Source: an uncultured virus (IMG/VR IMGVR_UViG_3300020421_000004) (taxonomy: Duplodnaviria > Heunggongvirae > Uroviricota > Caudoviricetes). Taken from it: a DNA stretch of 54,511 bases. Position 1 is the stretch's first letter, and every line of letters starts with the position of its first letter. Both the position numbers and the translations under genes were made by a program. Below are positions 7,553-50,845 of this stretch, in pieces. The notes beneath the pieces are model-generated. The model was given only the letters and a program-made list of their open reading frames with translations, did no database searches and was not told the DNA's origin. Where the stretch lies: IMG/VR virus record IMGVR_UViG_3300020421_000004; one strand, 5' to 3'.

Positions 7553-7990
7553 CTATTGGTACTGAGAACCGTCTATAAGATCCCTAGTACTCGTTGAAAA
7601 TAATACGAACGCCACGCCTGCCACTATTAGGGAGGCTGGCGTTCTTCCTACCATCTTTTTCATCCTAGTCTGACTAGGTTCATGCATAATCCAATCGAGT
7701 GTAGTATAAGCCCCTACTGCAACTAAACTTCCTAGCAAGAAAGTCATTTTAGGATCTGCAAAATTCATATTAGGCTTGTCGGCTGCACCTAAGCCAAATA
7801 ATCCTGGTGTCTTATTATCTGTATAACCAATACCATTTCTACGCTTACTTAGCGGTGCTGCATTTTTTCCACTAAAACTATCGTCCAAAGCCATACGATT
7901 GATGTCAATAAAATCATTACTTAACGTACGTCTTTCCCATTCTAAATCAGGGTGGTATCGTGGAACTTTACGAGCGTGCTTATGCATCAT
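7553..7990 (-). CDS. Small membrane protein (2 TM) with GLFGLG motif
   Basis: Hydrophobic segments FLLGSLVAVGAY and LIVAGVAFVLF; PGLFGLGA. Confidence 0.7.
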   Translation of the reverse strand: MMHKHARKVPRYHPDLEWERRTLSNDFIDINRMALDDSFSGKNAAPLSKRRNGIGYTDNKTPGLFGLGAADKPNMNFADPKMTFLLGSLVAVGAYTTLDWIMHEPSQTRMKKMVGRTPASLIVAGVAFVLFSTSTRDLIDGSQYQ

Positions 7991-8700
7991 TCGTACCAGT
8001 CTCCGCCTGCTAAGGGTGCTAGCCCTGAGAAGCCGAGAATATCTTGGTGTTTCTTTAAGTCGCCCATCATCATTGCCTCACGGTTTTCAAACTGTGTGTC
8101 TAATGTTGCTTCGTAAGATTCTGATGCCATACCGATTCCAGCGTGGCCTATTCTTCTACGAGCAGAGGGTGAGAAACCATTCATTCCATGTGAACCACCA
8201 CAGTGACAGTGAGGATTACTTCTTGTGCCACAGTTGTTACATGCACCTAGTCCTTGTGCTTTGTCAAACATCAAATGTGCCGGCGGATTTGATACTGCCC
8301 TTGTGACAGTTTGTTGATTAAGATACATATCAGTTTGTGGCATTGCTTTTACTGTTGCACCTAGCCCAAACATACCTGACTTTGTAGGGTCGATATACAT
8401 GGACGTCTCGCCATCGCCTGGTCCCGGCATCCTGTGTGAAGATGATGATGTAGTTGAAGTTGAAGTTGTTGCACCTAGTCCAGCCGTTTTCATTCGCTCT
8501 CGTAATATGTGGTCAGTATAGTCACCAGTTGCTAAAACGTCCTGTCGCACTTTTTGTCTTTCGGTAAGCGGGGCTACTGATTGCACCTTAATCATATCAT
8601 ATAAATAATAACCAAAAGTTCCAGCAAGTGCTAAAGTAACATATGGGTGCTTCTCACCGTAATTACTGATTTGCTTAATTACACCTTTCTTTCTAGCCAT
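7987..8700 (-). CDS. Membrane-anchored virion-like protein with several GLG motifs
   Basis: Basic N-terminus, KHP, TM; TAGLG, GMFGLG, AQGLG; Cys/His cluster CNNC..NPHCHC. Confidence 0.7.
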   Translation of the reverse strand: MARKKGVIKQISNYGEKHPYVTLALAGTFGYYLYDMIKVQSVAPLTERQKVRQDVLATGDYTDHILRERMKTAGLGATTSTSTTSSSSHRMPGPGDGETSMYIDPTKSGMFGLGATVKAMPQTDMYLNQQTVTRAVSNPPAHLMFDKAQGLGACNNCGTRSNPHCHCGGSHGMNGFSPSARRRIGHAGIGMASESYEATLDTQFENREAMMMGDLKKHQDILGFSGLAPLAGGDWYE

Positions 8701-8867
8701 TATTGATTCCCCACTTCGAATGCCTTTGTCATCACGTAACTAGTGAAATAAATATTTAATGCGGTATATGCTGCTGCACCACCGATTAATATAGATACAA
8801 CTGGATGCTTGTTTGCGAACTTCTTGGAATCTTTCCAAGCCGTTTTAACATCCTTTTGTATTCCCAT
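8700..8867 (-). CDS. Small membrane protein, 55 aa (absent from ORF track)
   Basis: MGIQKDVKTAWKDSKKFANKHPVVSILIGGAAAYTALNIYFTSYVMTKAFEVGNQ*; TAATG-coupled to 7987..8700. Confidence 0.7.
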   Translation of the reverse strand: MGIQKDVKTAWKDSKKFANKHPVVSILIGGAAAYTALNIYFTSYVMTKAFEVGNQ

Positions 8868-8873
8868 ATGTAA

Positions 8874-9110
8874 TCACGCCGATAGAATTCCTGCTGCTGC
8901 TATTGCACCTATTGCTCCACCGAGTGCAGCATTTCTCTTTGCTATAGTTTTGTAAGTAACACCTTTCTTTTGTGCTCGACCTAAGAAATAACCATCAGCA
9001 AATGCTTGCATTACACCGCCCACAGCGAATGCAACTACTGCGCCAGTGATAAGAACTGTACTGACCGCTACTTTTGGTGCGGTAACTTCTCCTAAATGAT
9101 CTGGATACAT
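8874..9110 (-). CDS. Small 2-TM membrane protein
   Basis: SD GAGGTGAG; two Gly/Ala-rich hydrophobic helices; N-terminal HLG. Confidence 0.7.
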   Translation of the reverse strand: MYPDHLGEVTAPKVAVSTVLITGAVVAFAVGGVMQAFADGYFLGRAQKKGVTYKTIAKRNAALGGAIGAIAAAGILSA

Positions 9111-9121
9111 ATCTTCTCACC

Positions 9122-9466
9122 TCACGCGTACATTGATGCTAAAGGAACGGCTACTGCTGCACCAATTGCTGCTGCTTGCCATGACTTATCTTTGGTCATC
9201 ATTTTACTATACATAGGAACCCTTAGCAATACCATTCCAATTACTGCACCTGCTACTAAACCATATCCTGCTTTTTTAGCAACACTGCGCATAGATGAAC
9301 CGCTAGAACTAGTTGTTGTTATCACTGCTGATTGAGGGTGTAATTGAGCATCAGTCATTCCTGCTGCCTGTTCTTGGCTCATGCCATGAGATCTAAAGAA
9401 ATCTCCATCACTCATATGTGGATGACCTAGGCCACCCATATCCATAGATCCGTACCATCCTGACAT
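9122..9466 (-). CDS. Small 2-TM membrane protein with MGGLG motif
   Basis: GAGGT SD; DMGGLGH; two C-terminal hydrophobic helices. Confidence 0.7.
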   Translation of the reverse strand: MSGWYGSMDMGGLGHPHMSDGDFFRSHGMSQEQAAGMTDAQLHPQSAVITTTSSSGSSMRSVAKKAGYGLVAGAVIGMVLLRVPMYSKMMTKDKSWQAAAIGAAVAVPLASMYA

Positions 9467-9476
9467 CTAAAAGACC

Positions 9477-9740
9477 TCAGAATCCGTAGAAGACGGGGTC
9501 TCCGTCAGCAGGTCCAAAGAAGTGTGAAGCATTTGTGTATGGTTCATTCCTAATTGGAGGGTATGCGTCATACGCATATCTTGCTACTGGAGCACTAGTC
9601 GCTCTTTGGACAGGTGCTGGTGCAAGGCTTGTTGTCATTCCATTGTTCTTCATATACATGTACGCCGCAGCGCCAATAATACCTATAGATAATGCGGTAT
9701 TTCTTTTATAGAAACTTTTTACTTTTTTTGTTAACTTCAT
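9477..9740 (-). CDS. Small membrane protein
   Basis: MKLTKKVKSFYKRN + TM; N-terminus similar to 10138..10542. Confidence 0.7.
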   Translation of the reverse strand: MKLTKKVKSFYKRNTALSIGIIGAAAYMYMKNNGMTTSLAPAPVQRATSAPVARYAYDAYPPIRNEPYTNASHFFGPADGDPVFYGF

Positions 9741-9749
9741 TATAATTCC

Positions 9750-10127
9750 TCATGTTAAATAATCGATACTTCCACCTAGTGTCAAACCGACTGTACCACC
9801 GACTAGGCCAGCGGATATAAGTGATTTGTTTGACATACCGCGTGTACTTGGGTATGCTTTGAGTGCGCCCATTGTAAGCCCTGTTGCTATAACAGGTGCT
9901 ACAACCGTATAATTTTCAATTCTCTGATCTCTCGCAGCGTTAACTAACATACCCATTCCGCCACCAACTAATGCACCTACGCCGGCACCTAATAGTAAAG
10001 AAGAAATACTCATGTTAGAACCGTCTAAGTATTCGACAACAAGAAAGCCTGTGCTACCAAAAAATGCACCAGTGACTGCAAATGGCCCAGCCGCTTTCAA
10101 TTGTTTTTTTGCAGACTCCCAATTCAT
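9750..10127 (-). CDS. Gly-rich multi-TM membrane protein
   Basis: About four Gly-zipper hydrophobic helices; GAGGA SD. Confidence 0.7.
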   Translation of the reverse strand: MNWESAKKQLKAAGPFAVTGAFFGSTGFLVVEYLDGSNMSISSLLLGAGVGALVGGGMGMLVNAARDQRIENYTVVAPVIATGLTMGALKAYPSTRGMSNKSLISAGLVGGTVGLTLGGSIDYLT

Positions 10128-10137
10128 CTTGTCGTCC

Positions 10138-10542
10138 TCAAAGTGTATGTCTCATGCCTGCAAAAATAAGTGGCTCATATCCATGTCTAATAGATGCACT
10201 TTGAACAACAGGTCTCTTGCCTCTTTCTGCTAAAGTCTTTTCTAGTTCAGGATCCATCATAAGTGGTTGAGTGTGATAGTCCGCATCGTAGCGTACTTGT
10301 GGTCCAGATGGAGAGGGCATTACTGTGTCCCATCTTCCTGTTCCTGGTGCTGCGCTTCCGGTGTGTCCGGTTTTGCGGAAAAAAGTATCCATATCGCTTC
10401 CACCAGTCTTGAACTTTGCTTGTCCTAGGCCGTTCATCTGCCCTACATTTTCGAAAGCATACATTATTCCAACCGTACCTAATGCTAACACTGCAAGCGG
10501 GTAGTCGTCTGCGAATTTCATGACTTTCTTTGCTAGTTTCAT
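10138..10542 (-). CDS. Membrane-anchored protein with MNGLG motif
   Basis: MKLAKKVMKFADDYP + TM, followed directly by QMNGLGQ. Confidence 0.7.
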   Translation of the reverse strand: MKLAKKVMKFADDYPLAVLALGTVGIMYAFENVGQMNGLGQAKFKTGGSDMDTFFRKTGHTGSAAPGTGRWDTVMPSPSGPQVRYDADYHTQPLMMDPELEKTLAERGKRPVVQSASIRHGYEPLIFAGMRHTL

Positions 10543-12168: not shown

Positions 12169-13152
12169 TTACATAGCGAGGTAATCGCTAAGGAATCCAG
12201 ACGACTGGTAAGTAACTGGGTTGTAGTACATGAATCGAAGTCTGCCACCAGCCTTTGCCTTTAATGTAGCAAGTTGCTCTTGTGACAGTTCTAAGATTTT
12301 GTATTTCCATCCAACCAATCTTACGCGACCGTCTAGAATGTACTCATCAGAATCGTTTACCACACGGAATGCAGGTAATGATGCTTCACCGTGTTCTACA
12401 ATCATACCGAAAGACCAGTTTGGATTTGCTAGAGGAGACATTTCTCCATCTAGGAAACCAGAGATACCTTCTAGAGTCGTTTCGCTTGCAGTTGCTCTTG
12501 CAGACTCACCGTCACTTGCTTCATCTAAAGTATGCTTGGCCACACCGCTAGGCTGTTTTAAGTATAATTTTGCAGATACGCTACCGATTTGTAATAGATG
12601 TTCTGCAGTTCCGTCACCCTTGAAACCAATCGGAAGTCCACCGTTTGATGTGTCATATGGCGGATAAGCATTCTTGGAGTGCCAATCACCAGCCTCTGAA
12701 TCCATATACTTTGGTTGTAGAGGTAGAGTTGGACATAGATGATACAAGTTACCTGCATATGGCTCAAGCGCCTTGAAGGTAATGAAACCGGAATCGTAGT
12801 CAGGTGCAAGAATGTTACCAGTCTTGTCTGTTTCTGCGACAGTTGTTGTTCCTAAGTCGTAGTAAGCACTGATTGAAGCAAGTCCGTATTGTTCTAGTGC
12901 CTCACCATGTGTTCCGTCAAAGTCGGTCGCTACATTGCTTGTTACCGCAGTGATTCCCACATTCACAGTATCTGTAAAGAACAGGTCAACGCTCATTGCT
13001 TCTACACCTGTTACTAATGCATACGTATCACGTATTCTGAGTAAATAACCAGGCTTCAACGCTATGTCTTCGCCTGTGTAATTTTCATAACTCACGTTCG
13101 CTAGTCGCCCGAAGGCGTTTCCACTTCTATATCCTTGATTTAGGTTTGCCAT
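12169..13152 (-). CDS. Putative capsid/penton-like structural protein (327 aa)
   Basis: Own TATA promoter and GTGGTG SD; beta-rich; C-terminal GRVRLVGWKYKIL; jelly-roll inferred, not shown. Confidence 0.45.
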   Translation of the reverse strand: MANLNQGYRSGNAFGRLANVSYENYTGEDIALKPGYLLRIRDTYALVTGVEAMSVDLFFTDTVNVGITAVTSNVATDFDGTHGEALEQYGLASISAYYDLGTTTVAETDKTGNILAPDYDSGFITFKALEPYAGNLYHLCPTLPLQPKYMDSEAGDWHSKNAYPPYDTSNGGLPIGFKGDGTAEHLLQIGSVSAKLYLKQPSGVAKHTLDEASDGESARATASETTLEGISGFLDGEMSPLANPNWSFGMIVEHGEASLPAFRVVNDSDEYILDGRVRLVGWKYKILELSQEQLATLKAKAGGRLRFMYYNPVTYQSSGFLSDYLAM

Positions 13153-14357: not shown

Positions 14358-14972
14358 TTAACTCAATTCTCCAATGTTCTGTGTGAGTTGGATCAATTCG
14401 TGGTGTTGTCCCACAACAGATCCAATTACACGCCACTTTTCTGCGCCACTTATTGTAGAGTTACCGAAATTAGCAGCCCCTCCAACCACACGGTGGTTGC
14501 AGACGATGTTCTTCTCAGGTTCAATAACAATAGGTGATTCATACCACACGAAAGGTTCCTCAAGTACTTCGAAGATTTGCTGATCGATCACAGGTGTTTC
14601 GATCCCGGAAATTTGCCATTGATGTTCTGTTATCAAAAGCGGTGTTACCGGATATTGTATACCCATGGTCAAGTAGAAAAATTCTTCTAGTGACTTGAAG
14701 TTCAAGGTCTTAGATGACCAACCAAAGGAGTCTACAGATGCAGAGGACGGGTTTCCGGATGAACCGGATGATGGGATTAACCATTGCCCGTAAGTTCCTA
14801 ATATACTGAATTGATCAGCACGTAGGATTCCCTTACCGTAGTCGCCTTTCGGCCAGACACCCTGAGATCCTCGACCCCAGTGTGGAAAGTTGCTTGCAAT
14901 TTTTTGCTCAATAAGGCTTAAATAATTCTTAATTTGACCGGTAGGCCGGTCGTAATAAGGTCTTAGTTCCAT
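14358..14972 (-). CDS. Candidate single jelly-roll major capsid protein (204 aa)
   Basis: Size; alternating beta pattern (FYLTMGIQYP, WYESPIVIEPEKNIVC, WRVIGSVVG); own promoter (CCTTATA about 15066-15072) with SD GGAAGTGA; near ATPase. Fold inferred. Confidence 0.45.
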   Translation of the reverse strand: MELRPYYDRPTGQIKNYLSLIEQKIASNFPHWGRGSQGVWPKGDYGKGILRADQFSILGTYGQWLIPSSGSSGNPSSASVDSFGWSSKTLNFKSLEEFFYLTMGIQYPVTPLLITEHQWQISGIETPVIDQQIFEVLEEPFVWYESPIVIEPEKNIVCNHRVVGGAANFGNSTISGAEKWRVIGSVVGQHHELIQLTQNIGELS

Positions 14973-15460: not shown

Positions 15461-16519
15461 TCAGAATATATTAGCGCGAACGCCGAATAACTGTTGAGAC
15501 TGAGGTGCTGGAAGCATTTCTGCTCCTACACCCATTCCAGTGTCGTGGTAGTTACCGATGTATCCGTATGAAGCACCACCTAGACCAGCGAGACCGCCAG
15601 CACTTGGTAGGCTAGAGACTAAGTTACCACCAACAGGTAGTGACATAGTCTGTAATGCGCCAACAGTTACAAGACCTAAAGCGATCATGTTTGCTGTTAA
15701 TGCTTCACTAGCACTAATGACTCCTAAACCAGTCATTCCGTATGATACAGCAGCGGTTAGACCAACAGCAAGTGCTGCCTTTCCAACGTTTGTTGTCATA
15801 CCAGGTACCATGTCCACGTAGGACATTGCTTTCATACCAACAGAAGTTGATGCGAGGTAACCTGCCATTGAAGGTAGAGATAGACCAAGAACTACAACAC
15901 CTAATCCGCGCAGATCCATATGGTTCTTTACGAAGGATGTGTATCCCTTGAAACTCATCTTCTTTGATGACTTTCGGCTTCGGCGAACACGAGATGTGCT
16001 CTTTCTTCTTGCAGTCTTTCTACGTGCAGTTTTCCTTCGAGTAGTTTTTCTTCTCTTAGGTGCAGCACGTCTCTTTACTCTACGCCTTCTTGTAGTAGTC
16101 TTTCTCCTTGGAGAAGACTTCCTTCTTGTAGTCTTTTTCCTACGAGTAGTTCGGCGTCTCTTTGGAGCAGCCTTCCTTCTTGTAGTCTTCCTTCTACGTG
16201 TAGTCTTTCTTCTCTTAGGAGCAGCCTTTCTACGTGCAGTCTTTCGACGTGCAGTCTTTCGACGTGTAGTCTTCCTTCTCTTAGGAGCAGCCTTTCTACG
16301 GGTTACTTTTCGGCGGCGAGTAGTTCTTTTGCGCTTCGGTGAAGCGCGTCGACGAGTTGTGGTCTTCCTTCTGGTTGACTTAACTCTTTTTGCAGATTTT
16401 CTTCTTGCCATTTTATTCATTCCTTTGTTTTTCGAACGCACACTCTTCTTCCTCTTTGAGGACTTGCGCTTTGCTGCCGGTCTTCGCGGATTAAGTATAA
16501 CTACTTCGGCTAAAGGCAT
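15461..16519 (-). CDS. Protamine/histone-H1-like genome-condensing protein with C-terminal membrane anchor
   Basis: Likely start ATG 16519 (MPLAEVVILNP) downstream of a TATA box, rather than 16585; about 170 aa of K/R/T/A repeats (RRKAAPKRRKTT), then 3-4 hydrophobic helices and GGLAGLGG. Confidence 0.8.
   Translation of the reverse strand: MPLAEVVILNPRRPAAKRKSSKRKKSVRSKNKGMNKMARRKSAKRVKSTRRKTTTRRRASPKRKRTTRRRKVTRRKAAPKRRKTTRRKTARRKTARRKAAPKRRKTTRRRKTTRRKAAPKRRRTTRRKKTTRRKSSPRRKTTTRRRRVKRRAAPKRRKTTRRKTARRKTARRKSTSRVRRSRKSSKKMSFKGYTSFVKNHMDLRGLGVVVLGLSLPSMAGYLASTSVGMKAMSYVDMVPGMTTNVGKAALAVGLTAAVSYGMTGLGVISASEALTANMIALGLVTVGALQTMSLPVGGNLVSSLPSAGGLAGLGGASYGYIGNYHDTGMGVGAEMLPAPQSQQLFGVRANIF
15990..16350 (-). 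repeat. Imperfect coding tandem repeats (RRK[T/A][T/A], AAPKRRKTT)
   Basis: Repeated units such as CTTTCGACGTGCAGT and TCTTAGGAGCAGCCTTTCTACG. Confidence 0.8.
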
Positions 16520-16529
16520 GCGATCTAAC

Positions 16530-16556
16530 CTGTCCGACAGCAGGGTAGGATATAAG
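16530..16556 (-). promoter_or_regulatory. Promoter CTTATA-N13-TCGGACAG for the basic core protein
   Basis: Same motif and spacing as 13190..13216; also contains ACCCTG. Confidence 0.55.
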
Positions 16557-16658
16557 GAGCGTGTATTGGTATATGTTCGTGTCATACATCTATAGATTAC
16601 GATGCTGTATTATAACCGCTTCAAAAACTGTGATAAGTATGTGTAGGTTGGGAAAGGT

Positions 16659-17410: not shown

Positions 17411-18115
17411 TTAAAACCGACTTAGGTTAAGTGATTTGGTCTTATCAACCAAAGGAACAGGTTCGTGTTTCTTCCACTTGCCCCCGCCTTGTGTATAATA
17501 GAACCAATATTTATTCATTGGGTCGGTAAAGAAATCTAATTGCTCAACATAGTGTTCTAAGTTCCTACTTCTAAGATACTCTGGTCTATCTTCTATTCTG
17601 AAAATTACTTTATTGTCTGATTGTGACCATGCAGTTTCGTTAAGTAATTGGATTCTTTGTGTCAATGCCATACCTACGATTCCAACACCTGCACCAATTG
17701 TCCAAATCATTTCCACTGCACGAGAGTTGCCTTTCTTAACGAATAACTGTATTTCGTCAATTGCAATAACACGTCGGATTCTTTTGAATCCTGCTGTTCT
17801 TTGTAATGTAAACATTAACTCTACTACTCTATCTAATGCTTCTATTCTTTCTTCCGATGTTCCAGGTGTTCTAAAAATAATTGCTGGGTTCTTTAGCAAT
17901 AGTTGTTCGTAAACTTCTATTGGTGTATGACAAATTGTTCCAAGATGTGAATATCCATCATCGTGCTTTGGGTCGATAAATAAAGTGTGACCACCTGTTT
18001 CTTGTATTCGTTGTAAGACCTTTGCAGCCAGAAAAGTCTTTCCACTTCTAGTAATACCTAATACAACACCGTGCCTGTGTTTGAATGATTCAATGAACCT
18101 TCCTGTCAGACGCAT
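17411..18115 (-). CDS. FtsK/HerA (A32-like) genome packaging ATPase
   Basis: Walker A GITRSGKT, FIDPK, Walker B IAIDEIQ, LTQR; 234 aa stand-alone; located between structural blocks. Confidence 0.8.
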   Translation of the reverse strand: MRLTGRFIESFKHRHGVVLGITRSGKTFLAAKVLQRIQETGGHTLFIDPKHDDGYSHLGTICHTPIEVYEQLLLKNPAIIFRTPGTSEERIEALDRVVELMFTLQRTAGFKRIRRVIAIDEIQLFVKKGNSRAVEMIWTIGAGVGIVGMALTQRIQLLNETAWSQSDNKVIFRIEDRPEYLRSRNLEHYVEQLDFFTDPMNKYWFYYTQGGGKWKKHEPVPLVDKTKSLNLSRF

Positions 18116-18288
18116 ATATGTATCAATGATTACCTAATTGATTTTAACTTGTTGTTGTAATTTACTCGTCAAATGCCGATTTCATGAAGTCTTTGAAGAA
18201 CTTGCACTCGCCATTATGGTGTCGTCTATCTGCTGTTGTTTTTGTCATGGTGTAAAAACTACACCGCCTCTATATCATTGTTTTGACC

Positions 18289-21200
18289 TTATGCTTCAAA
18301 CTGATCTGCAAATGGGTCGTCTTCTTCATCCATCGCTTCTCCGTGTCGCCAACCTGGATTACCAATTGGTATTTGTCTGATGATTTCTTTTGCTACTTCT
18401 GAATATTTACCTGTTCTTGATTTAGTGAATAAATCATAGGGCATTGTTTTTGCTGCCGCAACTTGCTTAGGAATTATGCTTGCTCTGGCTTTTGCGTTCG
18501 CTTCCGACATACCACCTCTTGACAATAATCTTTTTTCTATCTCTTTCGGAGACTTATCTGGTTCTAAGAATACTGCAAATGAATCTGGATAAAGTTTTTT
18601 ATATTCTTTCATTCCTTTTAGACTGACTTCTACAATTGATATGTCATCCATGTCTGTTTTTCTTCTGCCGTAAAAGACTCCATCTTTGTGTTGCTTGTAT
18701 TCAACAAACTCGTTGTTATCTATCATTTCTTTGAATTCATCTTTAGAAACGAAGATTCTATCTTCTCCTTCTTTCTCTTTTGGCCTTCTGGGTCTTGTTG
18801 TAACAGTTGGTACAAGAGTGCCGCCAAGTTCTTTTGCTATTGTTTTAGATATGGTTGATTTTCCAGAACCAGATGGGCCACTTACAATAATTACTTTACT
18901 TGGTGGATTTTTCTTATCTTTGGGGCTCTGTTCCTTTACACGTTTCCAAATTTTCTTAATCCTTGGATGCCAAGGAACTCTCTCACCTTTCTTAGCACGG
19001 GCTTTTTTCCTTGCTTGTGTACGAATAACATCTTTTCCTGATTCAGTTCTTAACAAAGACCTAATGACTTCCACAGGTAAACAAAGTCTAGGAGAACCAT
19101 CCGGTGTTTGTGTTCCTTCTGCACCACACTTTTCTTTGTAATCTATTTCTCCTTTGTTGTTTACTTTGATTGAACGCCAGTCTTCTGTGGTCCATGAATA
19201 TGATTGATAACCGGGAGCCATTGGGTTCACTTTTAGTTTTACTTTCATTTCTTTTGTTTTCACTTTCATTTCTTCAATAAATTGCTTGTAAACTTTCTGT
19301 GCTTCTTTGATTCCCTTTGTTGCATTAGGGTGGAATCTTGCTCTTTGTTCCATAGCCATTGCTGCTTGTATCTTATGTGCGTGAGTTTTTCCTGAGTTCT
19401 TAATCAGTCTAATTGATTTCTCTGCTGTTGCTTTGTCTTTAAACCCCAAGCCTTGAATTGTTCCTTCTGGATCTTCATCCGTGTACAGGTCTGAATGTTC
19501 GCTTGGATCTTGTCCTTCGTACTTCTTTGGGATTCGAGGGTTCTGTAAGACCATCAAGTTGGAACCTGGCTCGACTAATTCGAAACCATATCTTTGATAC
19601 CATTCAGGTACCCAAGCCCTAGGCTTCCCACGAGGAGCGTGTAGTTGTATCTTCTTGCCTTTGTGCATCTTTCTCAGTTCATCAAGAAGCAACTTCCCCA
19701 ATCCCTGCTTCCTGTTGTCTTTCTTTACGTTCAGATAATTTATATGAACCACGCCATCCGATTCGCTCCATAACAAATTTCCGACGTTCTTTCCATCTTC
19801 GTGCAAGTCTATCCTCATCATTCCTTCTTCTGCTTCGGGGTCAGGGTCAGGATAGTGTCTTATCTCTATGTGATTCGGATTCATTCTCGTGTTCGTCACA
19901 GCCATGACTCCTTCCATGTTGAATCTCTTCTTGAAGTCGTTAAACGAATCGCGGAGACTTGGTTTGCCCCATAGAATCCATCTTGACAACGCACCTGCTG
20001 TCATTGGGTCATTCCAATCTTCTCCCATTCCACCGTGACGTGCAAGGTAATTCTTCATTCGGTCTTTATCTTTATGCTGTGTGTAATCACTCATTCCTCT
20101 AGCACCGAAGTGGACAGTCTTTGTTCTACCATTTGGTTTGGTAAATACAGCCATCAACTTCTTTTCTGGGTTTGTGCTTTCGTCTATTCTAATTGAAATT
20201 TTTTTTTGAGGGTTGGATTTTGCTGACCTTTCTTGCCAATCGTAAGAAACAGAATCCTCTGTTATTGGCCCACCTGCTGCCCAAGTGTAACAAGTTCTAG
20301 CAGAATGACATTTGAAATTGTGCATCCAACACATTCCCAACTGTCCGTCATCTTGTACAGATCCTGGCATACAATCTAACATTCTTGGTGATATGTCAAA
20401 TGCAACACAGTTAGAGCAGTTTGATTCCTTAGCAACTTCTGGTGTTGTGTTCCAGTGTTCCGCTGCTTTGACCCAGTAATCTTCGTCTGCTAAGTTAAGT
20501 GGGCCGTATTTTATGTAATCTGCTTTTATTGCAGAGTTTCTATTCTTGGTGTTCAATTCCAAGTTCTGCGTTACTGCTGGACAACTATTGTGTGAGGGAT
20601 TGTTTCTAACTCGTAAGTAATAGTTGCCATTTGATGAAACCATCATAGAACCAATTGATTTAGGCATTGGATTTGGTTTTGGGATTATGTTGTATACTTC
20701 TTCAATCGCAGCAGCAGGTCTTTCAATATCATATTCAATAATATGTTCTACTTCGCCTTCTGCCGCATCTAATGTATCGTCAATCATACCTGCAACACGT
20801 TTTGCCTCTTGTGGTGAGACGCTATCTGAAAGATGCGATTCAATCATAGCCTCGGTATTAGTCGGGTGTAGGAAGAAACTGATTACAGATGGTTTAGCAT
20901 TGATTAAAAAATGCAAATCTTGTATCCTTGCATCGACTAACATATAGTCGCCCTTTTGCATATCTCTTCTACTGAAACCTCGTTTGTATCCAGCAAGAGA
21001 CTCAGTTACTACGACTAGTTCTCCGTTTATTTCCATCTTAGTAAAGATGTCATCACTAACTTCTACTATGTTTGGTCTCTTTTCAGATTCTTTCAGTGTC
21101 TTGGTAGTGATTGTCGTTACCACACTAGCGTTCATTCTTTTTGACAATGAATCAATAAACTTGTTTTTAGTTGAACGGACTGGTCCAGTTATCGCAATAA

Positions 21201-23289
21201 TTGTTCCAGCATTCGGGTTACGCATCGGTGCTATTGTGCCAAATGCAATATCACTTGTGTCGATATTGAAATCAAAAGTGTTTAACTTTTCTACAAGCGT
21301 TCTAACTGCTTGCAGAACTGCTTCGTCAGAATCTTCTGGCATTGGGTATCCTTTTGATGGAACAAATATCTGCACATTTCCTGTACCTTGTATTGTGAAA
21401 GATACTGCAGAGTTCTCTACTGGTATAGCAATATTGTATGCATTTGTCTGCCCTACTTGTAAGTCTTTATCTGGTTTTTTATACTCTTCTAAAAGTTCTA
21501 ACAACAACTCAGGATTTTCAAATACTCTTTTTGGTAAGACCATACCGAAGTCACGTCTAGTTCTTTGGACTGGAGGATTAACCCCCACTGTAGATACTGC
21601 TGCTCCATCTTGACCGTAGACCGCTACAGGTGTGCTCATGTTTCTTAGTTCTCTATTCCTTTTTCCCAAGGCATCTGCTACTGCTTTACCCATCTTTTCT
21701 TTGAGCGTAACCATAATGTCATATTTTGCCCGATTCAATTCTTTCTTACCGCTACGGACTTCGTCCATTGCTTCTACGCTCTTTATTGAAAAGTCTGCTA
21801 TTGGTAAAATAAAATTATGTTCTTCACCAATAACTTCCGATAGAGAACCATAAGCGTCTACTGCAACTACCGCATCGTAAAGCATAATGTCTTCTCTAAT
21901 CTCTTCGTTGGTTATTTCTAGGTAATCTAGTATGTCTACTATCCTACTAGGTACTTCTTTACCATCTCTTATCTTAGCATCTCTAATCTTTATATCATTA
22001 CTTATACATAGTATACCTAGTATATCATCATAGGTATATTCACTACCTCTATAATTAGAATAAAGGAAATGCGTAAGTCTTCTGTCGTCACCAGGAAGTA
22101 ATCCCATGTATCCAACGCCCTTTACATCTTTATTCATTGTAAAATACTTTGAATGCCAATATGCGTAATTTTCTTGCGGTTTGTCTTTCGGGCCGAAGTC
22201 TGGCCAAGATGCAGTTCCTGTTTTCAGATCTTTGAGTGCCTTTGCAATGAAAGCATCTTCTAAATGTAAATCGCTACCAGTTGGTTCTTCTGGGTTCTTT
22301 TTTACTTTGTAATGACACTTATATGTTATTGTAAAGTATTTTCCATAAGTTTTGTTTAGCCACTTGACTACTTCCCTGGTAACTTTTTCGCAATACAGTA
22401 GGTCGTCAGCGTATGTTTCGTTAGACATTGTTTCGTCTAATCTTTTTCCTGCTTCATCTATCTGTGCATCTAGTCCTGCGATGAACTTATCTTCATCGAT
22501 TTTAACATAATCTTTCTTCTTAGACGGTTTAGGTACAACGTGAAAGTAGTCCATTCTATCTGCCATAACAGTATAGAAGTGTCTAATGTTTCGTGGTTTA
22601 TGACTCATGTCAAAATACAATAAGAAATCATCTGCGGAACTCAGTGATGGTTCGTCTCTCTTGGGATGTGTATGATAGAACATTTTTGCTTTTTCTGGGG
22701 CTTTGGTTATTTTTATCTTAGGCATAACTAAAGATGCTCTGCGATGATAAATTGATTTGTCGTCACAGTATCCATAGTTTTCTCCCATGTTTGATACGAA
22801 AGAAAACAGTTTAGACCTAAATGCTGGTCCGTCGAATCCTCTATAAGCAAATACTCTAAAATAAGTTTCAGGTGAAGTCATCACCATTTTTTCATATTCG
22901 TTATCAAAATCTTGTAAAGCAGTTAATTGTTTGGCTACTGGGTTGGTAAGACTCAATGGTGTTATTTGCATAGAACCAAGTATGACTGTGTTATTCCTAG
23001 TAGTTCTTGTTTGATAATCGTGGTTTTCTACAACATGATCTACACTATTAATTGTAAATAAACTTGTATTGTAAAACTCTCTTAGTATATTTGGTATATC
23101 ACTACGCCTAACGTTTTTGGGGAATGTTATTCGGTATCTGAAAACATTATCTTTGTACTTAGTTTCTGTTTCGATGACTTTGTTTCCAGAAAGTATTTCT
23201 CCTTTTTCTGGGAAATTCAAAAGGGCTGCGATATCACTCGACGTCGTAGTCTTCATCATCTGGTTCATATTCGACTCCCTCCTCTTCAT
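18289..23289 (-). CDS. NP-delimited multidomain polyprotein: JAB-like, pseudo-guanylate kinase, Cys-rich domain, DUF5754-like, GNAT, two small viral domains, guanylate kinase
   Basis: YHTHP..LSSAD (JAB/MPN-like); HFGARGMSDYTQHKD..RWILW (DUF5754-like); VKKDNRKQGLGKLL..WYQRYGF (GNAT); SGPSGSGKST..TTRPRRPKEKEG..YG (Gmk). Likely start 23268 (GAGGAGG SD). Confidence 0.8.
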   Translation of the reverse strand: MKRRESNMNQMMKTTTSSDIAALLNFPEKGEILSGNKVIETETKYKDNVFRYRITFPKNVRRSDIPNILREFYNTSLFTINSVDHVVENHDYQTRTTRNNTVILGSMQITPLSLTNPVAKQLTALQDFDNEYEKMVMTSPETYFRVFAYRGFDGPAFRSKLFSFVSNMGENYGYCDDKSIYHRRASLVMPKIKITKAPEKAKMFYHTHPKRDEPSLSSADDFLLYFDMSHKPRNIRHFYTVMADRMDYFHVVPKPSKKKDYVKIDEDKFIAGLDAQIDEAGKRLDETMSNETYADDLLYCEKVTREVVKWLNKTYGKYFTITYKCHYKVKKNPEEPTGSDLHLEDAFIAKALKDLKTGTASWPDFGPKDKPQENYAYWHSKYFTMNKDVKGVGYMGLLPGDDRRLTHFLYSNYRGSEYTYDDILGILCISNDIKIRDAKIRDGKEVPSRIVDILDYLEITNEEIREDIMLYDAVVAVDAYGSLSEVIGEEHNFILPIADFSIKSVEAMDEVRSGKKELNRAKYDIMVTLKEKMGKAVADALGKRNRELRNMSTPVAVYGQDGAAVSTVGVNPPVQRTRRDFGMVLPKRVFENPELLLELLEEYKKPDKDLQVGQTNAYNIAIPVENSAVSFTIQGTGNVQIFVPSKGYPMPEDSDEAVLQAVRTLVEKLNTFDFNIDTSDIAFGTIAPMRNPNAGTIIAITGPVRSTKNKFIDSLSKRMNASVVTTITTKTLKESEKRPNIVEVSDDIFTKMEINGELVVVTESLAGYKRGFSRRDMQKGDYMLVDARIQDLHFLINAKPSVISFFLHPTNTEAMIESHLSDSVSPQEAKRVAGMIDDTLDAAEGEVEHIIEYDIERPAAAIEEVYNIIPKPNPMPKSIGSMMVSSNGNYYLRVRNNPSHNSCPAVTQNLELNTKNRNSAIKADYIKYGPLNLADEDYWVKAAEHWNTTPEVAKESNCSNCVAFDISPRMLDCMPGSVQDDGQLGMCWMHNFKCHSARTCYTWAAGGPITEDSVSYDWQERSAKSNPQKKISIRIDESTNPEKKLMAVFTKPNGRTKTVHFGARGMSDYTQHKDKDRMKNYLARHGGMGEDWNDPMTAGALSRWILWGKPSLRDSFNDFKKRFNMEGVMAVTNTRMNPNHIEIRHYPDPDPEAEEGMMRIDLHEDGKNVGNLLWSESDGVVHINYLNVKKDNRKQGLGKLLLDELRKMHKGKKIQLHAPRGKPRAWVPEWYQRYGFELVEPGSNLMVLQNPRIPKKYEGQDPSEHSDLYTDEDPEGTIQGLGFKDKATAEKSIRLIKNSGKTHAHKIQAAMAMEQRARFHPNATKGIKEAQKVYKQFIEEMKVKTKEMKVKLKVNPMAPGYQSYSWTTEDWRSIKVNNKGEIDYKEKCGAEGTQTPDGSPRLCLPVEVIRSLLRTESGKDVIRTQARKKARAKKGERVPWHPRIKKIWKRVKEQSPKDKKNPPSKVIIVSGPSGSGKSTISKTIAKELGGTLVPTVTTRPRRPKEKEGEDRIFVSKDEFKEMIDNNEFVEYKQHKDGVFYGRRKTDMDDISIVEVSLKGMKEYKKLYPDSFAVFLEPDKSPKEIEKRLLSRGGMSEANAKARASIIPKQVAAAKTMPYDLFTKSRTGKYSEVAKEIIRQIPIGNPGWRHGEAMDEEDDPFADQFEA

Positions 23290-26200: not shown

Positions 26201-27373
26201 CGGATGTGCATGCTTGTAGGGGTCGAAAGTCTTTACTTCATCAATGCTAACTGGTACTGCTGCTAATCCACTGTATGTCTTTTCTAAGTTTCTCAACGGG
26301 TAGTGTAAACTAAAGAACATCCTAGTTGGTAATTCTTTACTGGCTAGAACGCTTTCGTCAAACCATACTTCTTCTGCTTCAATGGCTTGTTGTTTGCCTT
26401 GAAAGTTTCCTAATCCATTTAGTAGTGCTCGAAGGTAGTCTATGACGTCCGGTGCATCTCCTAATGGTTGGTCTTTGTTTTGACCTATCCATATCTGAAA
26501 GTTTTTTCCGGTATACATAATGATGTACGGGTGACCTGCGTTTGCTATTCTAATGGCCGCCTTATGTGTAACATCTCTTAGTTTCGCTTTGGGTACTTTT
26601 GCAGGATTGTCTATATCTATGACTGCTAGTTTCAAACCTTTTCTTGTAGGAGATGGATCCCAAACTAGACCACGTATTTGACTGTCTTTGGCACCAGGGA
26701 AGTTTGTATCTCTATATCGCTCGCTACTAAGCATTTCTTGCAAGTCTTCTTCCGAATGCAGAGTTACTTCGTTAACGTCTTTAGTATTCCTTATTGGTGT
26801 GGGTATGTAGCCCCGTGTTTGACTAAACTTGATGAATGATATTGGATGGTGCATTGTTTTTCTCAGCATAAATGGTAATACTTTGGCGTGGTATTGTTCC
26901 AACCTACTCTTGATTGCATTGGCTGTCACCTGCGCGTTGGCTGTTACGGGATGTTGTAGCCTTTCTATTTCAGACATTTCTTGCCACTTTTTTGCATTTA
27001 ACCCTGCCTCATAAGCCAAACTTGTTGCCATCTCTTTGACTGTTTTTGGTTCAGGGTTGTAAGCGAATGCATTAGCATCTTTAGAAACACTTCCGTAACT
27101 GTCTCTTACTTTTTTACTTAGTAGCGGCTTTAATTCGTTAATTGCTTCTAAGTATGTTTTTCCTTCCATGTCGTATGGTTTTTCACCAGTTTCTCTATCT
27201 TCTGCATTCGCACAAAGTATGCGTAATCCTTCGTGATAGAAGAATACATTTCTTGGAGAAAGAAATTTATCCAAAAATACATCTATGTCATCTTCTGAAA
27301 GCGTTTCTTTGTCAATGGTTTCTAACTGAGCGAACTTATCAAACTCACGGAATAGTAATGCGTTGTCACTCAT
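23234..27373 (-). CDS. Polyprotein with AEP primase/polymerase-like and ATP-dependent ligase-like domains (LigD-like) plus further NP-delimited modules
   Basis: AVIDID, YTGKNFQIW, FSLHYP..GLAAVPV (AEP-like); YAKARG, LVGQL, VVEPSIVVEVAYEDI (ligase NTase and OB fold). Several catalytic positions are non-canonical. Confidence 0.65.
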   Translation of the reverse strand: MSDNALLFREFDKFAQLETIDKETLSEDDIDVFLDKFLSPRNVFFYHEGLRILCANAEDRETGEKPYDMEGKTYLEAINELKPLLSKKVRDSYGSVSKDANAFAYNPEPKTVKEMATSLAYEAGLNAKKWQEMSEIERLQHPVTANAQVTANAIKSRLEQYHAKVLPFMLRKTMHHPISFIKFSQTRGYIPTPIRNTKDVNEVTLHSEEDLQEMLSSERYRDTNFPGAKDSQIRGLVWDPSPTRKGLKLAVIDIDNPAKVPKAKLRDVTHKAAIRIANAGHPYIIMYTGKNFQIWIGQNKDQPLGDAPDVIDYLRALLNGLGNFQGKQQAIEAEEVWFDESVLASKELPTRMFFSLHYPLRNLEKTYSGLAAVPVSIDEVKTFDPYKHAHPDVVLLNFDTYAGIISAFFDEVEVGQDFGSDTETAPECIRLDNKYPEHELISLIDSKSNTIGVKLKDISNKIEDEESAFVYAKARGIDAVITYNERGGIRFGGNTLTSSKVKTIGMKKEAVSDNALSAIITRTGIVIHHDHISRDLQRYCQSKNISQVTLVGQLVSVDFLGNELEEGEIRGIIARKNGVLPEEFKLLKFVVNKITSYNHDVVPLEVMGETVRELTTNRLLSGANNYYTKPLGNKVKGFYKTMRNQYIGRELVILGEEKYLVAATQTMNMAILGMDPKTTAYQQNSKEIGNVYVGVIKTDRNRGPIYYVMAKAEIALKKEDRIKLKDLVVGENNNNIVPNNVRDDAFIEDIVVVEPSIVVEVAYEDISKRMTNALPFHYLPSTAAGRPAIYRVVPAKRYITKMIGAKIISIKADLNPLKQTDVAFNQDNLIKIQGTAPKGGFTIVQSLPNPIKRDDMYFAYDKYLGEEIDTKVPWKMSEKAFNKLSKLTKDTAIIGYVDGKRIYYNDAKNWVMHGNNKDFFWASMTFKSITSPFKLRGIDIMNATKMCAEYGINWHLVISENTFYWLYCDIENSEIRKEHAKYIKDEDYDGDIEEVLSDLLHTVNSTYSPKEEVKDARVPGFIFDVTVVEKIKQNPAFYGVPKKLNSWMDVYIDGTELGTDEDGKQKYRYVEAGGTIVPMTTYGGRKADVPLIGGTSDVPGELNRAVERFDKGEPGYKVFIDTQSANSMNKTPHYTMTDLPFYYSTAVDDALGYGKDGNRVMFGKDPDKLTKITDKYNTKSFKTEMDLHDLSNKEQAKEDAKILTSMFNYVPGGKVIDKDAKETETRTGSGFSAEYQSAYDGDNARLKRALKPTLFAHFGAARNPPIKQEAWSQYVNKYVSTHASWDAEPEPKETWERYSMGAFPVHFVEMLEKERLLLKAQSEHSLTEDELRIVNETFSAETTGDLLESPLDDLFETLEEEDEEEGVEYEPDDEDYDVE

Positions 27374-28209
27374 TTGCTATCACCATACATTCTTATTGTG
27401 TCGTCTTTGTGGTTTTCATACCAATTTTTGAAAAATGGTTCAGCATTTTTGAAGTTGTTGTATGAGAGGTCTATGAAGCCATTCAGACATCTTATTTGGT
27501 TTCTATCATTCCCAGACTTCCTGTCTGTTACGCAATGTAGGGTGGGTTCAAATGGGTGTTCGGAACCTCCATAGTGTAGGTCTCGCAACGCTACTTCGGG
27601 TCGAGACCTTTCTCGACCTTCCTCATACAATTTACCGAAGTCAACACACAATCTATGAGCCGTGAACTCATGTACCATTATTGTGAGTGCCTGTTCTGGG
27701 CGCATATTCAATAGTATCCCAGATTTGAAAGTGACTTCCCTATAGCCTCCCATGAACGCATATGAAGGTCTGGGTTTATCACCCATGTGTAGTGTGTTCA
27801 AAGGAAGATCCTGTAGTCTCATTTCTACAGTATTGAAATCGTCTTCTCTATTGGGTCCCCATGCCTCTTTTATTACTTTATTATCCTGCACATAAAATGA
27901 CCCTTTGTCCATGATACCTTTAACGAATGTGAAGGTTGGTTCTACCCCTGTAAAGTGATTCATGAATGCTGCCCACGCTTTTAGCAGCGGCATCATTCCA
28001 GCCATTTTTTCTCCTCTAGAATCTGGGTGAATTGATAGCAAGATGTGATGATCCATATGCTCGTTAGTATTGTACATGTTCAAGCAGTTTTTACAAAACA
28101 AGTGGTGGGTATCAGATGGCGGATCGAACGGGTCATAAACTGTATATGATGTGGAAATTTCGTGCACCTTGGTGTCTGTTCTTTTTAAACCACTCATGGC
28201 GACCACCAC
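27370..28209 (-). CDS. Putative zincin-like metallopeptidase / hypothetical
   Basis: ALTIMVHEFTAH...HPFEP; N-terminal H..HLFCKNC. Confidence 0.4.
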   Translation of the reverse strand: MVVAMSGLKRTDTKVHEISTSYTVYDPFDPPSDTHHLFCKNCLNMYNTNEHMDHHILLSIHPDSRGEKMAGMMPLLKAWAAFMNHFTGVEPTFTFVKGIMDKGSFYVQDNKVIKEAWGPNREDDFNTVEMRLQDLPLNTLHMGDKPRPSYAFMGGYREVTFKSGILLNMRPEQALTIMVHEFTAHRLCVDFGKLYEEGRERSRPEVALRDLHYGGSEHPFEPTLHCVTDRKSGNDRNQIRCLNGFIDLSYNNFKNAEPFFKNWYENHKDDTIRMYGDSK

Positions 28210-45021: not shown

Positions 45022-45459
45022 TCACTTTCTCAGACGATACATTACTCCAGCAACTAATGCTAGTGGTATCCAGTTCTGAGTAACGAATGACTGCACGCCG
45101 AATAATCCTGGTGTTCCCCAGTGTGCTGGTTTGTTGTCCATAGATGATGTCATCATTGTTTCTTCACCAGGTGCTGAACCAATGCCGAATATTCCTGGGC
45201 CTGGTAGTGAACGAACTCCATCGTTACCGTACCATGCGCTTGACATACCATCACCCATTTCATTTCCGTGGTGTCCCTTCATGGATCCTTTGTGTGCGCT
45301 ACCCAGTCCAAAGAAACCTTTGGATGTTGGTGTTGGTACTCTCGAACCATATCCTGCGTGACTGTTTTCAAATATCGTAGGTCTGATATTATCCAAGTAA
45401 TCTGGGCTTTTAGGTAGTTTACCTATTCTTCGTTGTAGTGATATATTCATTGCTGGCAT
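45022..45459 (-). CDS. C-terminally anchored protein with three GxFG(L/I/V) motifs
   Basis: GFFGLG, GIFGIG, GLFGV; TM WIPLALVAGVMY. Confidence 0.7.
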   Translation of the reverse strand: MPAMNISLQRRIGKLPKSPDYLDNIRPTIFENSHAGYGSRVPTPTSKGFFGLGSAHKGSMKGHHGNEMGDGMSSAWYGNDGVRSLPGPGIFGIGSAPGEETMMTSSMDNKPAHWGTPGLFGVQSFVTQNWIPLALVAGVMYRLRK

Positions 45460-45657: not shown

Positions 45658-46353
45658 TTACTTCCTATTGAATAGTTTGACTAACGGATGCTTTGAAAGC
45701 ATATCTCCAAACTTATTTCCTTGTGGCTTTAGTGTTCTAACAACCCTAGCACTACCTAGTCCACTGATTGTATTACGTGTAATTGGTGAGCGTATTGTTT
45801 TTGCATCGGCCATCAACGGATATACTTTCGATATGGGTACACTTTGTCCTAACTTGAATTCTGGATAAATTAACTCACAAGGTATCCAGTTGTCACCGAA
45901 CTCCCTGTTTGGAGAAAATGTCTTTGTAACTAACATTACGTGATTGAAAACTCCGTCACCTGAAGAATCTACAATTAATGCACCAACAGGATAACCTAGA
46001 GAACCGAGTAGTGAACCACCTAATATAACAAAGTCGTCACAATCACCAGCAGACATTCCATTGTCTATGTCACGTAGTAGCCTTCTTGCCGTGTGAAAGT
46101 ACTCCACACCAATTGGTTCTTTACGATATACCATATGAGTCTGTACCCATTTTACAATTGCTCTTATTTCTCCGACTTCATCGTGTCCTCGAATATTTGC
46201 TGCTTGTACAATTGAGATTGCTTTTTGTCTGACTGCTTGGTCACGCATTCCATCTTCTATCATATCAACTATTATTCTAACGATGCTCTCAAATCGCTTC
46301 TGTATAGGGACGTTTGCTCCATACTTGATGTGATACACCTGTCCCTCATCCAT
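45658..46353 (-). CDS. Transglutaminase-like cysteine protease (candidate maturation protease)
   Basis: WVQTHMVYRKEP..EY; AGDCDD (Cys); FNHV (His); WIPCE (acidic residue) match the transglutaminase-like triad; own C-tail has ISGLG. Confidence 0.8.
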   Translation of the reverse strand: MDEGQVYHIKYGANVPIQKRFESIVRIIVDMIEDGMRDQAVRQKAISIVQAANIRGHDEVGEIRAIVKWVQTHMVYRKEPIGVEYFHTARRLLRDIDNGMSAGDCDDFVILGGSLLGSLGYPVGALIVDSSGDGVFNHVMLVTKTFSPNREFGDNWIPCELIYPEFKLGQSVPISKVYPLMADAKTIRSPITRNTISGLGSARVVRTLKPQGNKFGDMLSKHPLVKLFNRK

Positions 46354-46424: not shown

Positions 46425-46865
46425 ATGAAGAAAGAACTCACGATAGTGATTCCGGGTGAGCCGGTGTCTCAAGGCAGACCTCGGTTTAGTACACACGGTG
46501 GTTTCGCTAGAGCCTACGATCCAAAGAAAAGTAGAGAGGGTAAACAGTCTGTAAAGTATTTTGCAGATGCAGCAATGTTGGATGCAGGCATTGGTGTACT
46601 TATCGGCCCAATAGGAATGCAAATACAATTTGGAATTAAATTACCAAAAAGCCAAGAACGTAAGAGAACACCTGTTCCTAGAAAATGGCGAACTAAGAAA
46701 CCAGACTTAGATAATATGATTAAATTGGTAAAAGATGCTTGTTCCGGCATTGTTTTCTTAGACGACAACCAAATAGTAAAGATGTCAGCGGAAAAAATAC
46801 AATGTGCTCAAGGTGAAGCACCATTTACTAGAGTCCGGTTCTTTGAACTAGAAGAAATAAATTAA
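46425..46865 (+). CDS. rusA: RusA-family Holliday junction resolvase
   Basis: IPGEPVSQGRPRF...KKPDLDNMIKLVKDACSGIVFLDDNQIV. Confidence 0.9.
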   Translation: MKKELTIVIPGEPVSQGRPRFSTHGGFARAYDPKKSREGKQSVKYFADAAMLDAGIGVLIGPIGMQIQFGIKLPKSQERKRTPVPRKWRTKKPDLDNMIKLVKDACSGIVFLDDNQIVKMSAEKIQCAQGEAPFTRVRFFELEEIN

Positions 46866-50224: not shown

Positions 50225-50845
50225 ATGGGCGGAAAGGGGAGCGGTAGGCCATTTGGTGATAAGAATAAAATCGACGCATTCGACCCAGACACATGGCCTG
50301 CTAATGATAAAAGAAGATTGGAACGAGAAATGCAAATAAAAGATGTATTAATGGGAAGTAAGGTAGTTAATTCGCCAAAGAAGTTATGGATGCGGGAACG
50401 TACCGCGCACTTAGAAGGCGGTAGAGTCAACGTACAACTAGACCAAACTATGTTAGACACCGTCGCTGATATGCAGGCAATGTACAAACTCGGCGCTTTC
50501 AGATACTTGCCTTTGTCGGTACGTGAAGTGTTCTTACGAACAGGTATGTATAACATGCCATTCGATAAAGACGCAGCATTTAGTAATGACCCTAAAGCAA
50601 GACCTTGGAATACTACCGCACTTGTAAGAATGTCTTTAGAGATAATGCGTCTTTACCTAATGGGTTTAGACCCATACATGAGTAGGGCTATGCGGTCTTA
50701 CCTTTCCGTTGACCTACACAAGATAGGAATGAAGAGAATGACAAACTCTGTTCAACGCGCAGCAGAGTTTGACAAAGTCTACGACTATGAAGATGATTCC
50801 GAATTCGACTTCAGTGGTCTAATGGATGAAGATCTTGAGTTTTAG
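50225..50845 (+). CDS. Hypothetical protein (206 aa)
   Basis: MGGKGSGRP N-terminus; acidic tail overlaps the nrdJ end. Confidence 0.65.
   Translation: MGGKGSGRPFGDKNKIDAFDPDTWPANDKRRLEREMQIKDVLMGSKVVNSPKKLWMRERTAHLEGGRVNVQLDQTMLDTVADMQAMYKLGAFRYLPLSVREVFLRTGMYNMPFDKDAAFSNDPKARPWNTTALVRMSLEIMRLYLMGLDPYMSRAMRSYLSVDLHKIGMKRMTNSVQRAAEFDKVYDYEDDSEFDFSGLMDEDLEF

Follow-up and report, generated by a model that had tools for sequence, protein, structure and literature searches.

A glycine-centred motif and a transglutaminase-like cysteine enzyme co-occur in a large marine archaeal virus and in distant viruses and suggest an undescribed mode of virion maturation

We analysed a stretch of 54,511 nucleotides (the window) from the uncultured virus record IMGVR_UViG_3300020421_000004, focusing on a glycine motif that recurs in a cluster of eight short minus-strand open reading frames (ORFs) at 7553..10542 (975 residues in total, the majority of the ORFs with hydrophobic segments) and on a cysteine enzyme, the product of 45658..46353. 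The motif, noticed in a preliminary description of the sequence, is real, conserved and specific to one class of proteins, and its joint occurrence with the enzyme across viruses suggests an undescribed mode of virus particle maturation. Our preferred reading, to which we assign a probability of roughly 0.55, is that a transglutaminase-fold protease reads the motif as a processing signal and matures the virion at glycine sites, in analogy to adenovirus and poxvirus maturation. Glycine-directed virion maturation is itself known; the variant with a transglutaminase-fold enzyme appears to be new, with its activity predicted from sequence.

The motif is enriched in soluble segments of small membrane proteins

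The cluster holds the following proteins and sites (TM, transmembrane).
7553..7990, minus strand: 145-residue protein with two TM segments by hydropathy (residues 82-98 and 113-135) and a hypervariable linker after KRRNGIG and GLFG, at the end of its conserved N-terminal part
7787..7801, minus strand: LFGLG, residues 64-68 of the 7553..7990 product, in frame
7826..7840, minus strand: RNGIG, residues 51-55 of the same product, strongly conserved and absent from the sites listed earlier
7987..8700, minus strand: 237-residue modular, membrane-anchored protein, with S/T-rich, NPHCHCG and KHP-type modules exchanged between motif sites
8473..8487, minus strand: TAGLG, preceding the S/T-rich module of the 7987 protein, in frame
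8359..8373, minus strand: MFGLG in the 7987 protein; LFG/MFG is conserved and the second Gly varies
8245..8259, minus strand: AQGLG in the 7987 protein, a lineage-specific insert (alignment gap in 26/34 family members)
8020..8031, minus strand: FSGL in the 7987 protein, 12 residues before the C-terminus
8700..8867, minus strand: 55-residue single-TM protein without a site
8874..9110, minus strand: 78-residue hairpin membrane protein with an HLG/GIG/GFG leader at the N-terminus (PDHLG at 9090-9104; 10/14 family members)
9122..9466, minus strand: 114-residue hairpin membrane protein with an MGGLG leader at the N-terminus (9425-9439; xLG in 8/9 family members)
9477..9740, minus strand: 87-residue protein with an N-terminal hydrophobic stretch and FYGF at the end, without a soluble G-hydrophobic-G site
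9750..10127, minus strand: 125-residue multi-TM protein whose sole match, GMG, lies inside a TM segment
10138..10542, minus strand: 134-residue protein with a TM segment at residues 14-31, then MNGLG (10423-10437), and FAGM close to the C-terminus (10153-10164)

The preliminary description had listed seven sites of the form (M/I/L/F)xG(L/I/F)G in soluble segments beside TM helices. All seven are in frame on the minus strand and outside TM segments called by hydropathy, but only four fit that pattern, TAGLG, AQGLG and HLG being the exceptions. In the 7987 protein, a hydrophobic stretch near the N-terminus fell below the hydropathy threshold and was placed by eye at residues 20-36. Three of the eight genes (8700, 9477 and 9750) have no soluble G-hydrophobic-G site. 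The C-terminal F-A-G-M of the 10138 protein, overlooked in the first listing, is better conserved than the listed sites: F-x-G-hydrophobic is kept near the C-terminus in 28/28 family members, and G[LI]G follows the TM helix in 12/28. The 7553 family retained LFG, FFG or QLG in 23/28 members and the complete LFG-hydrophobic-G in 8/28.

Genome-wide statements rest on three relatives found via the 45658 and 12169 proteins, namely G001 (79% complete), G002 (complete, 140 kb, with the gene order of the window) and G003 (44%). The earlier pattern occurred four times in the eight cluster proteins against 0.40 expected (2000 shuffles, p = 0.001, about tenfold), and G[LIFM]G nine times against 2.6 (shuffles, p = 0.002). 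The motif was not enriched in capsid-candidate and ATPase genes (0 vs 0.55) or fibre genes (0 vs 0.74), and it stood at chance in 74 non-virion ORFs of a complete relative (2 vs 2.7), so the proposed check against non-structural genes came out in favour of enrichment. Eight other small proteins of the virion module, a set picked after the motif had been seen, gave 8 vs 0.38. The G002 counterpart of the cluster alone was not significant (1 vs 0.29, p = 0.26), and a second G002 gene block apart from the main module (18127-26300, L015-L016) gave 5 vs 0.67 (p = 0.002).

We then drew 339 distinct cluster proteins from 93 loci, or 227 after dereplication at 85% identity; because these proteins are related, counts over them are not independent events. 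Their soluble segments contained 139 G[LIFM]G against 47 expected and 65 hydrophobic-x-G-hydrophobic-G against 8.2, with 39 vs 31 and 14 vs 8.7, respectively, inside TM segments. GxxxG was enriched in TM segments only (161 vs 87). The placement of the motif in soluble segments, off GxxxG packing faces, is thus upheld, and TM packing is ruled out as its origin, the motif being enriched only outside the membrane and GxxxG only inside it. Orthologous sites vary among GLG, GIG, NLG, QLG, HLG, LFG-V and FAG-I; as read from these sequences, the conserved core is hydrophobic-x-Gly-hydrophobic-(Gly), loosening to N/Q/H-Leu-Gly.

The sites had been likened to those of the adenovirus protease, whose consensus is given in PMC4246237 as (M/I/L)XGG-X or (M/I/L)XGX-G with relaxed P4. 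This specificity was not borne out: (M/I/L)xGG occurred 40 times against 37 expected in the 227 proteins, and the consensus fitted 4/7 of the listed sites, 24/120 enzyme-tail sites (see below) and 3/27 orthologous S/T-module junctions of the 7987 family, where Gly is present in 27/27 and hydrophobic-Gly in 23/27 (27/34 family members have the module). A different element, a basic N-terminus followed by [HYN]-P-hydrophobic directly before the first TM helix, matched 57 times in the 227 proteins (7987-8867 and 10138-10542 in the window) and is possibly a shared membrane-targeting signal; a KHPLV stretch at the end of the enzyme tail (45658-45700) resembles it.

Motif sites mark module joints

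In the orthologs from 93 loci, the motif is conserved at the protein level and located at module joints, and modules recur in different proteins immediately after a motif site. Of 69 indels of at least 6 residues, 33 began or ended no more than 3 residues from a site, compared with 17.1 expected. This count is inflated, since aligners behave peculiarly at repeats and the motif set was chosen post hoc. Such clustering of indel edges, together with a common 9-mer encoding Leu-Gly-Ala at three sites of the 7987 gene, would also suit a flexible membrane-interface linker that is repeated through DNA microhomology driving module shuffling and is read by no enzyme. We consider this very improbable, since the 84 GLG sites use 49 different 9-mers with codon entropy at motif positions near background, viruses with a guanine-cytosine content of 44-67% share this consensus, and a linker does not need the invariant F-x-G five residues from the C-terminus. 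A fixed DNA repeat as the origin of the motif is ruled out by the freely varying synonymous codons.

The candidate enzyme has a transglutaminase-like fold and carries the motif at its domain end

45658..46353, minus strand: candidate maturation enzyme with a transglutaminase-like fold, first gene of the virion module, with Cys105 (46039-46041), His138 (45940-45942) and Glu160 (45874-45876)
45754..45768, minus strand: ISGLG closing the enzyme domain, where the variable tail starts (115/120 homologs)

The product of 45658..46353, already proposed as the enzyme, emerged as the best candidate by its fold, its invariant residues and the motif at its domain end. Cys105, His138 and Glu160 are invariant in 68/68 aligned homologs (the pattern in 120/120), and DCDD, NH[VI][ML] and WIPxEL are present in 120/120. 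The structure model reached a predicted local distance difference test score of 73.7, with values below 50 for most residues beyond 181. It matched 3kd4 (Z 13.0, root mean square deviation 3.1 over 148 residues), factor XIII (Z 11.7), LapG (9.4) and PeiP (8.8), and Foldseek matched it to 3isr (E 1.5e-4). The G002 ortholog gave a weak Transglut_core match (E 4e-4, under the cut-off), and the enzyme profile found 0 matches among PDB sequences. According to the model, the product has a transglutaminase-like fold with Cys-His-acid order.

Hydrophobic-x-G-hydrophobic stands at the end of the conserved domain in 115/120 homologs, and the tails beyond differ widely in length and content; identity to the window enzyme falls from 0.77 at residues 196-198 to 0.17 after residue 200. 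Across 101 distant homologs, G[LIFM]G is densest 60-140 residues past the Cys (40 sites in 4462 residues), compared with 10 in 13863 residues across the domain. The fold by itself does not decide between peptide-bond hydrolysis and acyl transfer. True transglutaminases and acyltransferases are among the top fold matches, and the C-terminus is 5-12 residues away from several sites. Both would suit a transpeptidase that cuts at Gly and passes the acyl portion on to an amine of another virion protein or of a lipid head group, so that the membrane proteins become cross-linked or anchored. We regard this as the least probable of the alternatives, given that 98/164 sites in distant viruses are N-terminal to the first TM helix, consistent with leader removal.

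The enzyme family comprises 2655 representatives at E<=0.001 (viral and other members not separated). Its only match among 50,697 phage records is gp34 of SSIP-1, annotated as a structural protein (E 6e-33). The top BFVD match has 304 residues, the same length as gp34, and we presume it to be the same protein.

Motif and enzyme co-occur across distant viruses

The soluble parts of membrane proteins on the strand of the enzyme were compared in 27 enzyme-bearing loci, i.e. 26 distant loci and SSIP-1. The distant loci, each up to about 20 kb, were scanned with two narrower enzyme alignments and crude ORF and TM calling; L005 (a tailed, T4-like phage), L006 (weak match) and L151 (same contig as L004) were left out. 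The results showed 169 sites against 83 expected, with 12/27 loci individually significant and 19/27 above 1.5-fold. The controls, which are few, small and unmatched by kinship, were nine cultured tailless viruses in which no enzyme was detected; they gave 20 vs 23, with 0/9 significant and 1/9 above 1.5-fold (rank test between the two groups, p = 0.001). In the distant enzyme-bearing viruses, M, L or F is enriched two places ahead of the first Gly. The annotated late genes of SSIP-1 gave 17 vs 8.9 (p = 0.005), with motif-type sites RGMG, QGMG, RGLG and PGMG in gp34, gp36, gp37 and gp53.

This co-occurrence also bears on the main rival, an uncut assembly tag, by which the hydrophobic-Gly peptide would bind a pocket on the capsid inner face, a scaffold or the enzyme-like protein and recruit membrane proteins with their cargo modules. 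Tandem degenerate copies, period-3 hydrophobic-x-Gly runs in the enzyme tail, sites in the enzyme-less P23-77 and the unfixed residue after Gly all agree with a tag. We nevertheless judge it unlikely, as the motif tracks the enzyme family across viruses, the sites lie exactly at domain ends and ahead of short terminal tails, and the catalytic-type residues are invariant.

No clan CE protease is recognisable, and other proteases fit poorly

The absence of a recognisable clan CE protease, previously stated for the window, extends to the complete 140 kb relative. PF00770, PF02902 and PF03290 were found in 0/3 records (G001-G003), although very divergent members could escape this search; two clan CE families were absent from G004-G008, and a Pfam scan of 109 G002 ORFs revealed no clan CE protease. 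The idea of an adenain-type, clan CE enzyme does not hold for the candidate itself, whose fold is transglutaminase-like.

22627..22674, minus strand: HTHP...S..D motif near the N-terminus of a 1666-residue protein (18289..23289), also in G001, G002 and G003

We take this motif to be JAB/JAMM-like; the region has no Pfam match, the same protein has further domain matches to GNAT, guanylate kinase and DUF5754, and G002 has a second HTHP-type motif in the neighbouring protein. Retropepsin-like aspartic proteases are encoded in the non-virion region of two relatives, G002 (L020:2175-2513, minus strand) and L001 (2331-2684, minus strand). The JAB/JAMM-like domain, such a retropepsin or a host signal peptidase acting after the 10138 TM helix might cut the sites instead. 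JAMM enzymes cut after Gly, and signal peptidase I prefers small residues at -3 and -1, as in G-L-G. However, the JAB pattern was not found in the 27 distant loci (of up to about 20 kb) or the SSIP-1 genome, retropepsin is present in 1/5 records and absent from the complete, motif-positive G006, and only 14/181 motif sites lie within 10 residues past a TM helix (at a looser TM threshold), which makes cutting by another enzyme improbable. The HE..H-type motif of 27370..28209 was ruled out as an enzyme, the gene being absent from G001-G003.

The window belongs to a clade of large archaeal viruses

The archaeal nature of the virus, assumed from the start, was confirmed by the replication and transcription genes of G002 and by its thermosome. 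Above archaeal cut-offs, G002 encodes PolB, a fused single-chain RpoA'/A''-like RNA polymerase subunit, MCM, primases and a thermosome, and it also has a SWIB domain (key loci L016:16157-19219, L017:529-5523, L019:17789-19999 and L015:16367-17899). Among the 120 thermosome matches listed, the named cellular ones were Poseidoniales at 43-44%, and one match was labelled Halieaceae. Separately, two genome-bin matches were labelled Flavobacteriales and Methanobacteriota; the bacterial labels are presumably mis-binning. The 140 kb virus probably infects Poseidoniales archaea.

17411..18115, minus strand: FtsK/HerA-type packaging ATPase, closest to SH1 (E 2e-13) and HHIV-2 (6e-12) among 10 references tested

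We infer a tailless particle with an internal membrane because of this ATPase type, the cluster of membrane genes and the lack of portal or HK97 matches among the scanned G002 ORFs (Pfam); G002 is apparently a large tailless archaeal virus. A PHROG labelled terminase also matches the packaging ATPase. Candidates for single-jelly-roll capsid proteins had no match by hmmsearch against PDB or by hhalign. For 12169..13152, Atlas lists VP17 at 0.77, which serves as a lead only. The most conserved gene of the module, 14358-14972 (minus strand; 77-99% identity), is without a family match and likely encodes a capsid protein. In the distant loci, a packaging ATPase search found no match (possibly out of range or a poor profile), so that a tailless nature is indicated only for L004 (by inspection) and SSIP-1. 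Our literature search found no published description of this large archaeal virus clade; PMC13108676 describes a tailed family and 10.1101/2025.08.03.668216 is, in its accessible part, unrelated.

Other genes of the window

15461..16585, minus strand: core-like protein with a long K/R-rich N-terminus, hydrophobic segments and a C-terminal tail with LAGLG (15578-15592), YIG, GMG and LFGV (15479-15490)
45022..45459, minus strand: 145-residue protein anchored at its C-terminus and bearing three motif sites, FFGLG (45301-45315), IFGIG (45178-45192) and LFGV (45094-45105)

In the 15461..16585 product, K/R-rich repeats of some 200 residues are joined to hydrophobic segments, a composition suggestive of DNA binding, and in many homologs the tail ends in LFG-x-x-x-N-[VI]-F. 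In the large proteins encoded by 18289-40604 (minus strand), [RKS]x-N-P recurs (by raw counts, NP 14 times in the 1666-residue protein and 9 times in a 652-residue protein); this motif and the glycine motif are mostly on different protein classes. The N-terminal part of the 23234-27373 product (minus strand), conserved in G001-G003 and without a Pfam match, is presumably primase-polymerase-like, judged by eye from its motif. The window also contains a TFIIB-like fragment (53976-54503, weak match), a class II ribonucleotide reductase (50811-52763) and a RusA resolvase (46425-46865).

Proposed mechanism and points against it

In the proposed maturation, the enzyme, the basic core protein and the small membrane proteins would all start out as precursors that carry leaders, tails and exchangeable modules, and a tailless particle would form from them at its internal membrane. 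Once packaged, the enzyme would cut the hydrophobic-x-Gly or x-hydrophobic-Gly joints; the simplest position is behind the last Gly, although sequence does not decide whether Gly would be P1 or P1'. Cutting would trim leaders and short C-terminal tails, free modules from their anchors and release the enzyme from its own tail. We infer the proteolytic activity, the substrate pairing, the bond cut, the timing and the virion location of the proteins, the last from gene order and the SSIP-1 annotation.

Besides the inflated indel test and the sparse controls, several observations weigh against this maturation. At the level of loci, 15/27 enzyme-bearing loci are not individually significant, including SSIP-1 (5 vs 3.1), and P23-77 (L127), without a detectable enzyme, has 17 G[LIFM]G against 7.7 (p = 0.008, TM unmasked), with GLG-type stretches in the small virion membrane proteins VP19, VP22 and ORF18 that proteolytic maturation leaves unexplained. 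The motif is degenerate and occurs in two registers, one ortholog has Pro directly following Gly (FFG-P), and some tails of core-protein homologs carry tandem copies (GYLGYLG), more than cutting requires. The charge flanks assign the sites no consistent membrane side, so that access of the enzyme to the sites is unexplained. The enzyme itself shows no signal peptide or TM segment, and cross-linkers, acyltransferases and peptidoglycan hydrolases also belong to the transglutaminase-fold proteins.

Comparison with known maturation systems

The adenovirus protease (AVP; MEROPS C5, clan CE; precursors pVI, pVII, pVIII, pIIIa, pTP) resembles the system proposed here in its Gly-centred sites with an upstream hydrophobic residue, the spread of sites over several minor virion and core proteins (putative ones here), the short basic C-terminal tails after the site and the use of a cysteine enzyme. 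In contrast, the P2 Gly required by AVP is not kept here (NLG, QLG, LFG-V), (M/I/L)xGG is not enriched, no C5, C48 or C57 gene was found in G001-G003, the candidate has a Cys-His-acid order in a transglutaminase-like fold, and the putative substrates are membrane proteins of a virus with an archaeal host. AVP is activated by DNA together with a peptide cofactor released by cleavage. Poxvirus I7 (AG-X) and pS273R of African swine fever virus (GG-X) are clan CE enzymes; like the proposed system, they cleave after Gly in membrane and core precursors of viruses with an internal membrane, whereas PF03290 and PF02902 were not found in G001-G003.

SSIP-1 gp34 is an enzyme homolog, annotated as structural, and the first-listed structural gene of its late block. 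SSIP-1 differs from the window virus in its bacterial host and 44 kb genome, and gp34 in its C-terminal membrane anchor and Asp as the third residue. The transglutaminase-like cysteine proteases LapG, PeiP/PeiW, 3isr and 3kd4 share the fold and the Cys-His-acid arrangement at 9-18% identity, with Glu here in place of Asp and with different substrates. Sphaerolipoviridae (SH1, HHIV-2) and other single-jelly-roll viruses have the most similar packaging ATPase and, behind capsid-like genes, a run of small genes for membrane proteins; the nine tested lack the enzyme and the motif enrichment, and the window clade differs by genomes of about 140 kb with an RNA polymerase subunit, PolB, MCM and a thermosome.

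To our knowledge, it is the eukaryotic members of the jelly-roll virus lineages that mature by proteolysis, using clan CE enzymes, and we know of no maturation protease in the cultured prokaryotic members PRD1, PM2 and SH1. A literature search confined largely to openly accessible papers found no account of a transglutaminase-type enzyme in the maturation of jelly-roll or tailless viruses, and the accessible part of PMC5332951 does not mention processing.

Significance

More tentatively, tailless viruses with an internal membrane, as a broad group with archaeal and bacterial hosts, may possess a glycine-directed maturation of their own, built on a transglutaminase-fold enzyme and not on clan CE. 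Their membrane proteins would then act as small polyproteins in which cargo modules come and go, and the enzyme may catalyse joining in addition to cutting, by transpeptidation at exposed Gly. Because the cultured phage SSIP-1 carries both a homolog and the motif, the idea of glycine-directed maturation is directly testable. In genomes without annotation, the motif further points to likely virion proteins. If the proposed maturation is true, an unrelated enzyme with a similar glycine code would form a parallel system, a case of convergent evolution, and a large viral enzyme family would gain a function.

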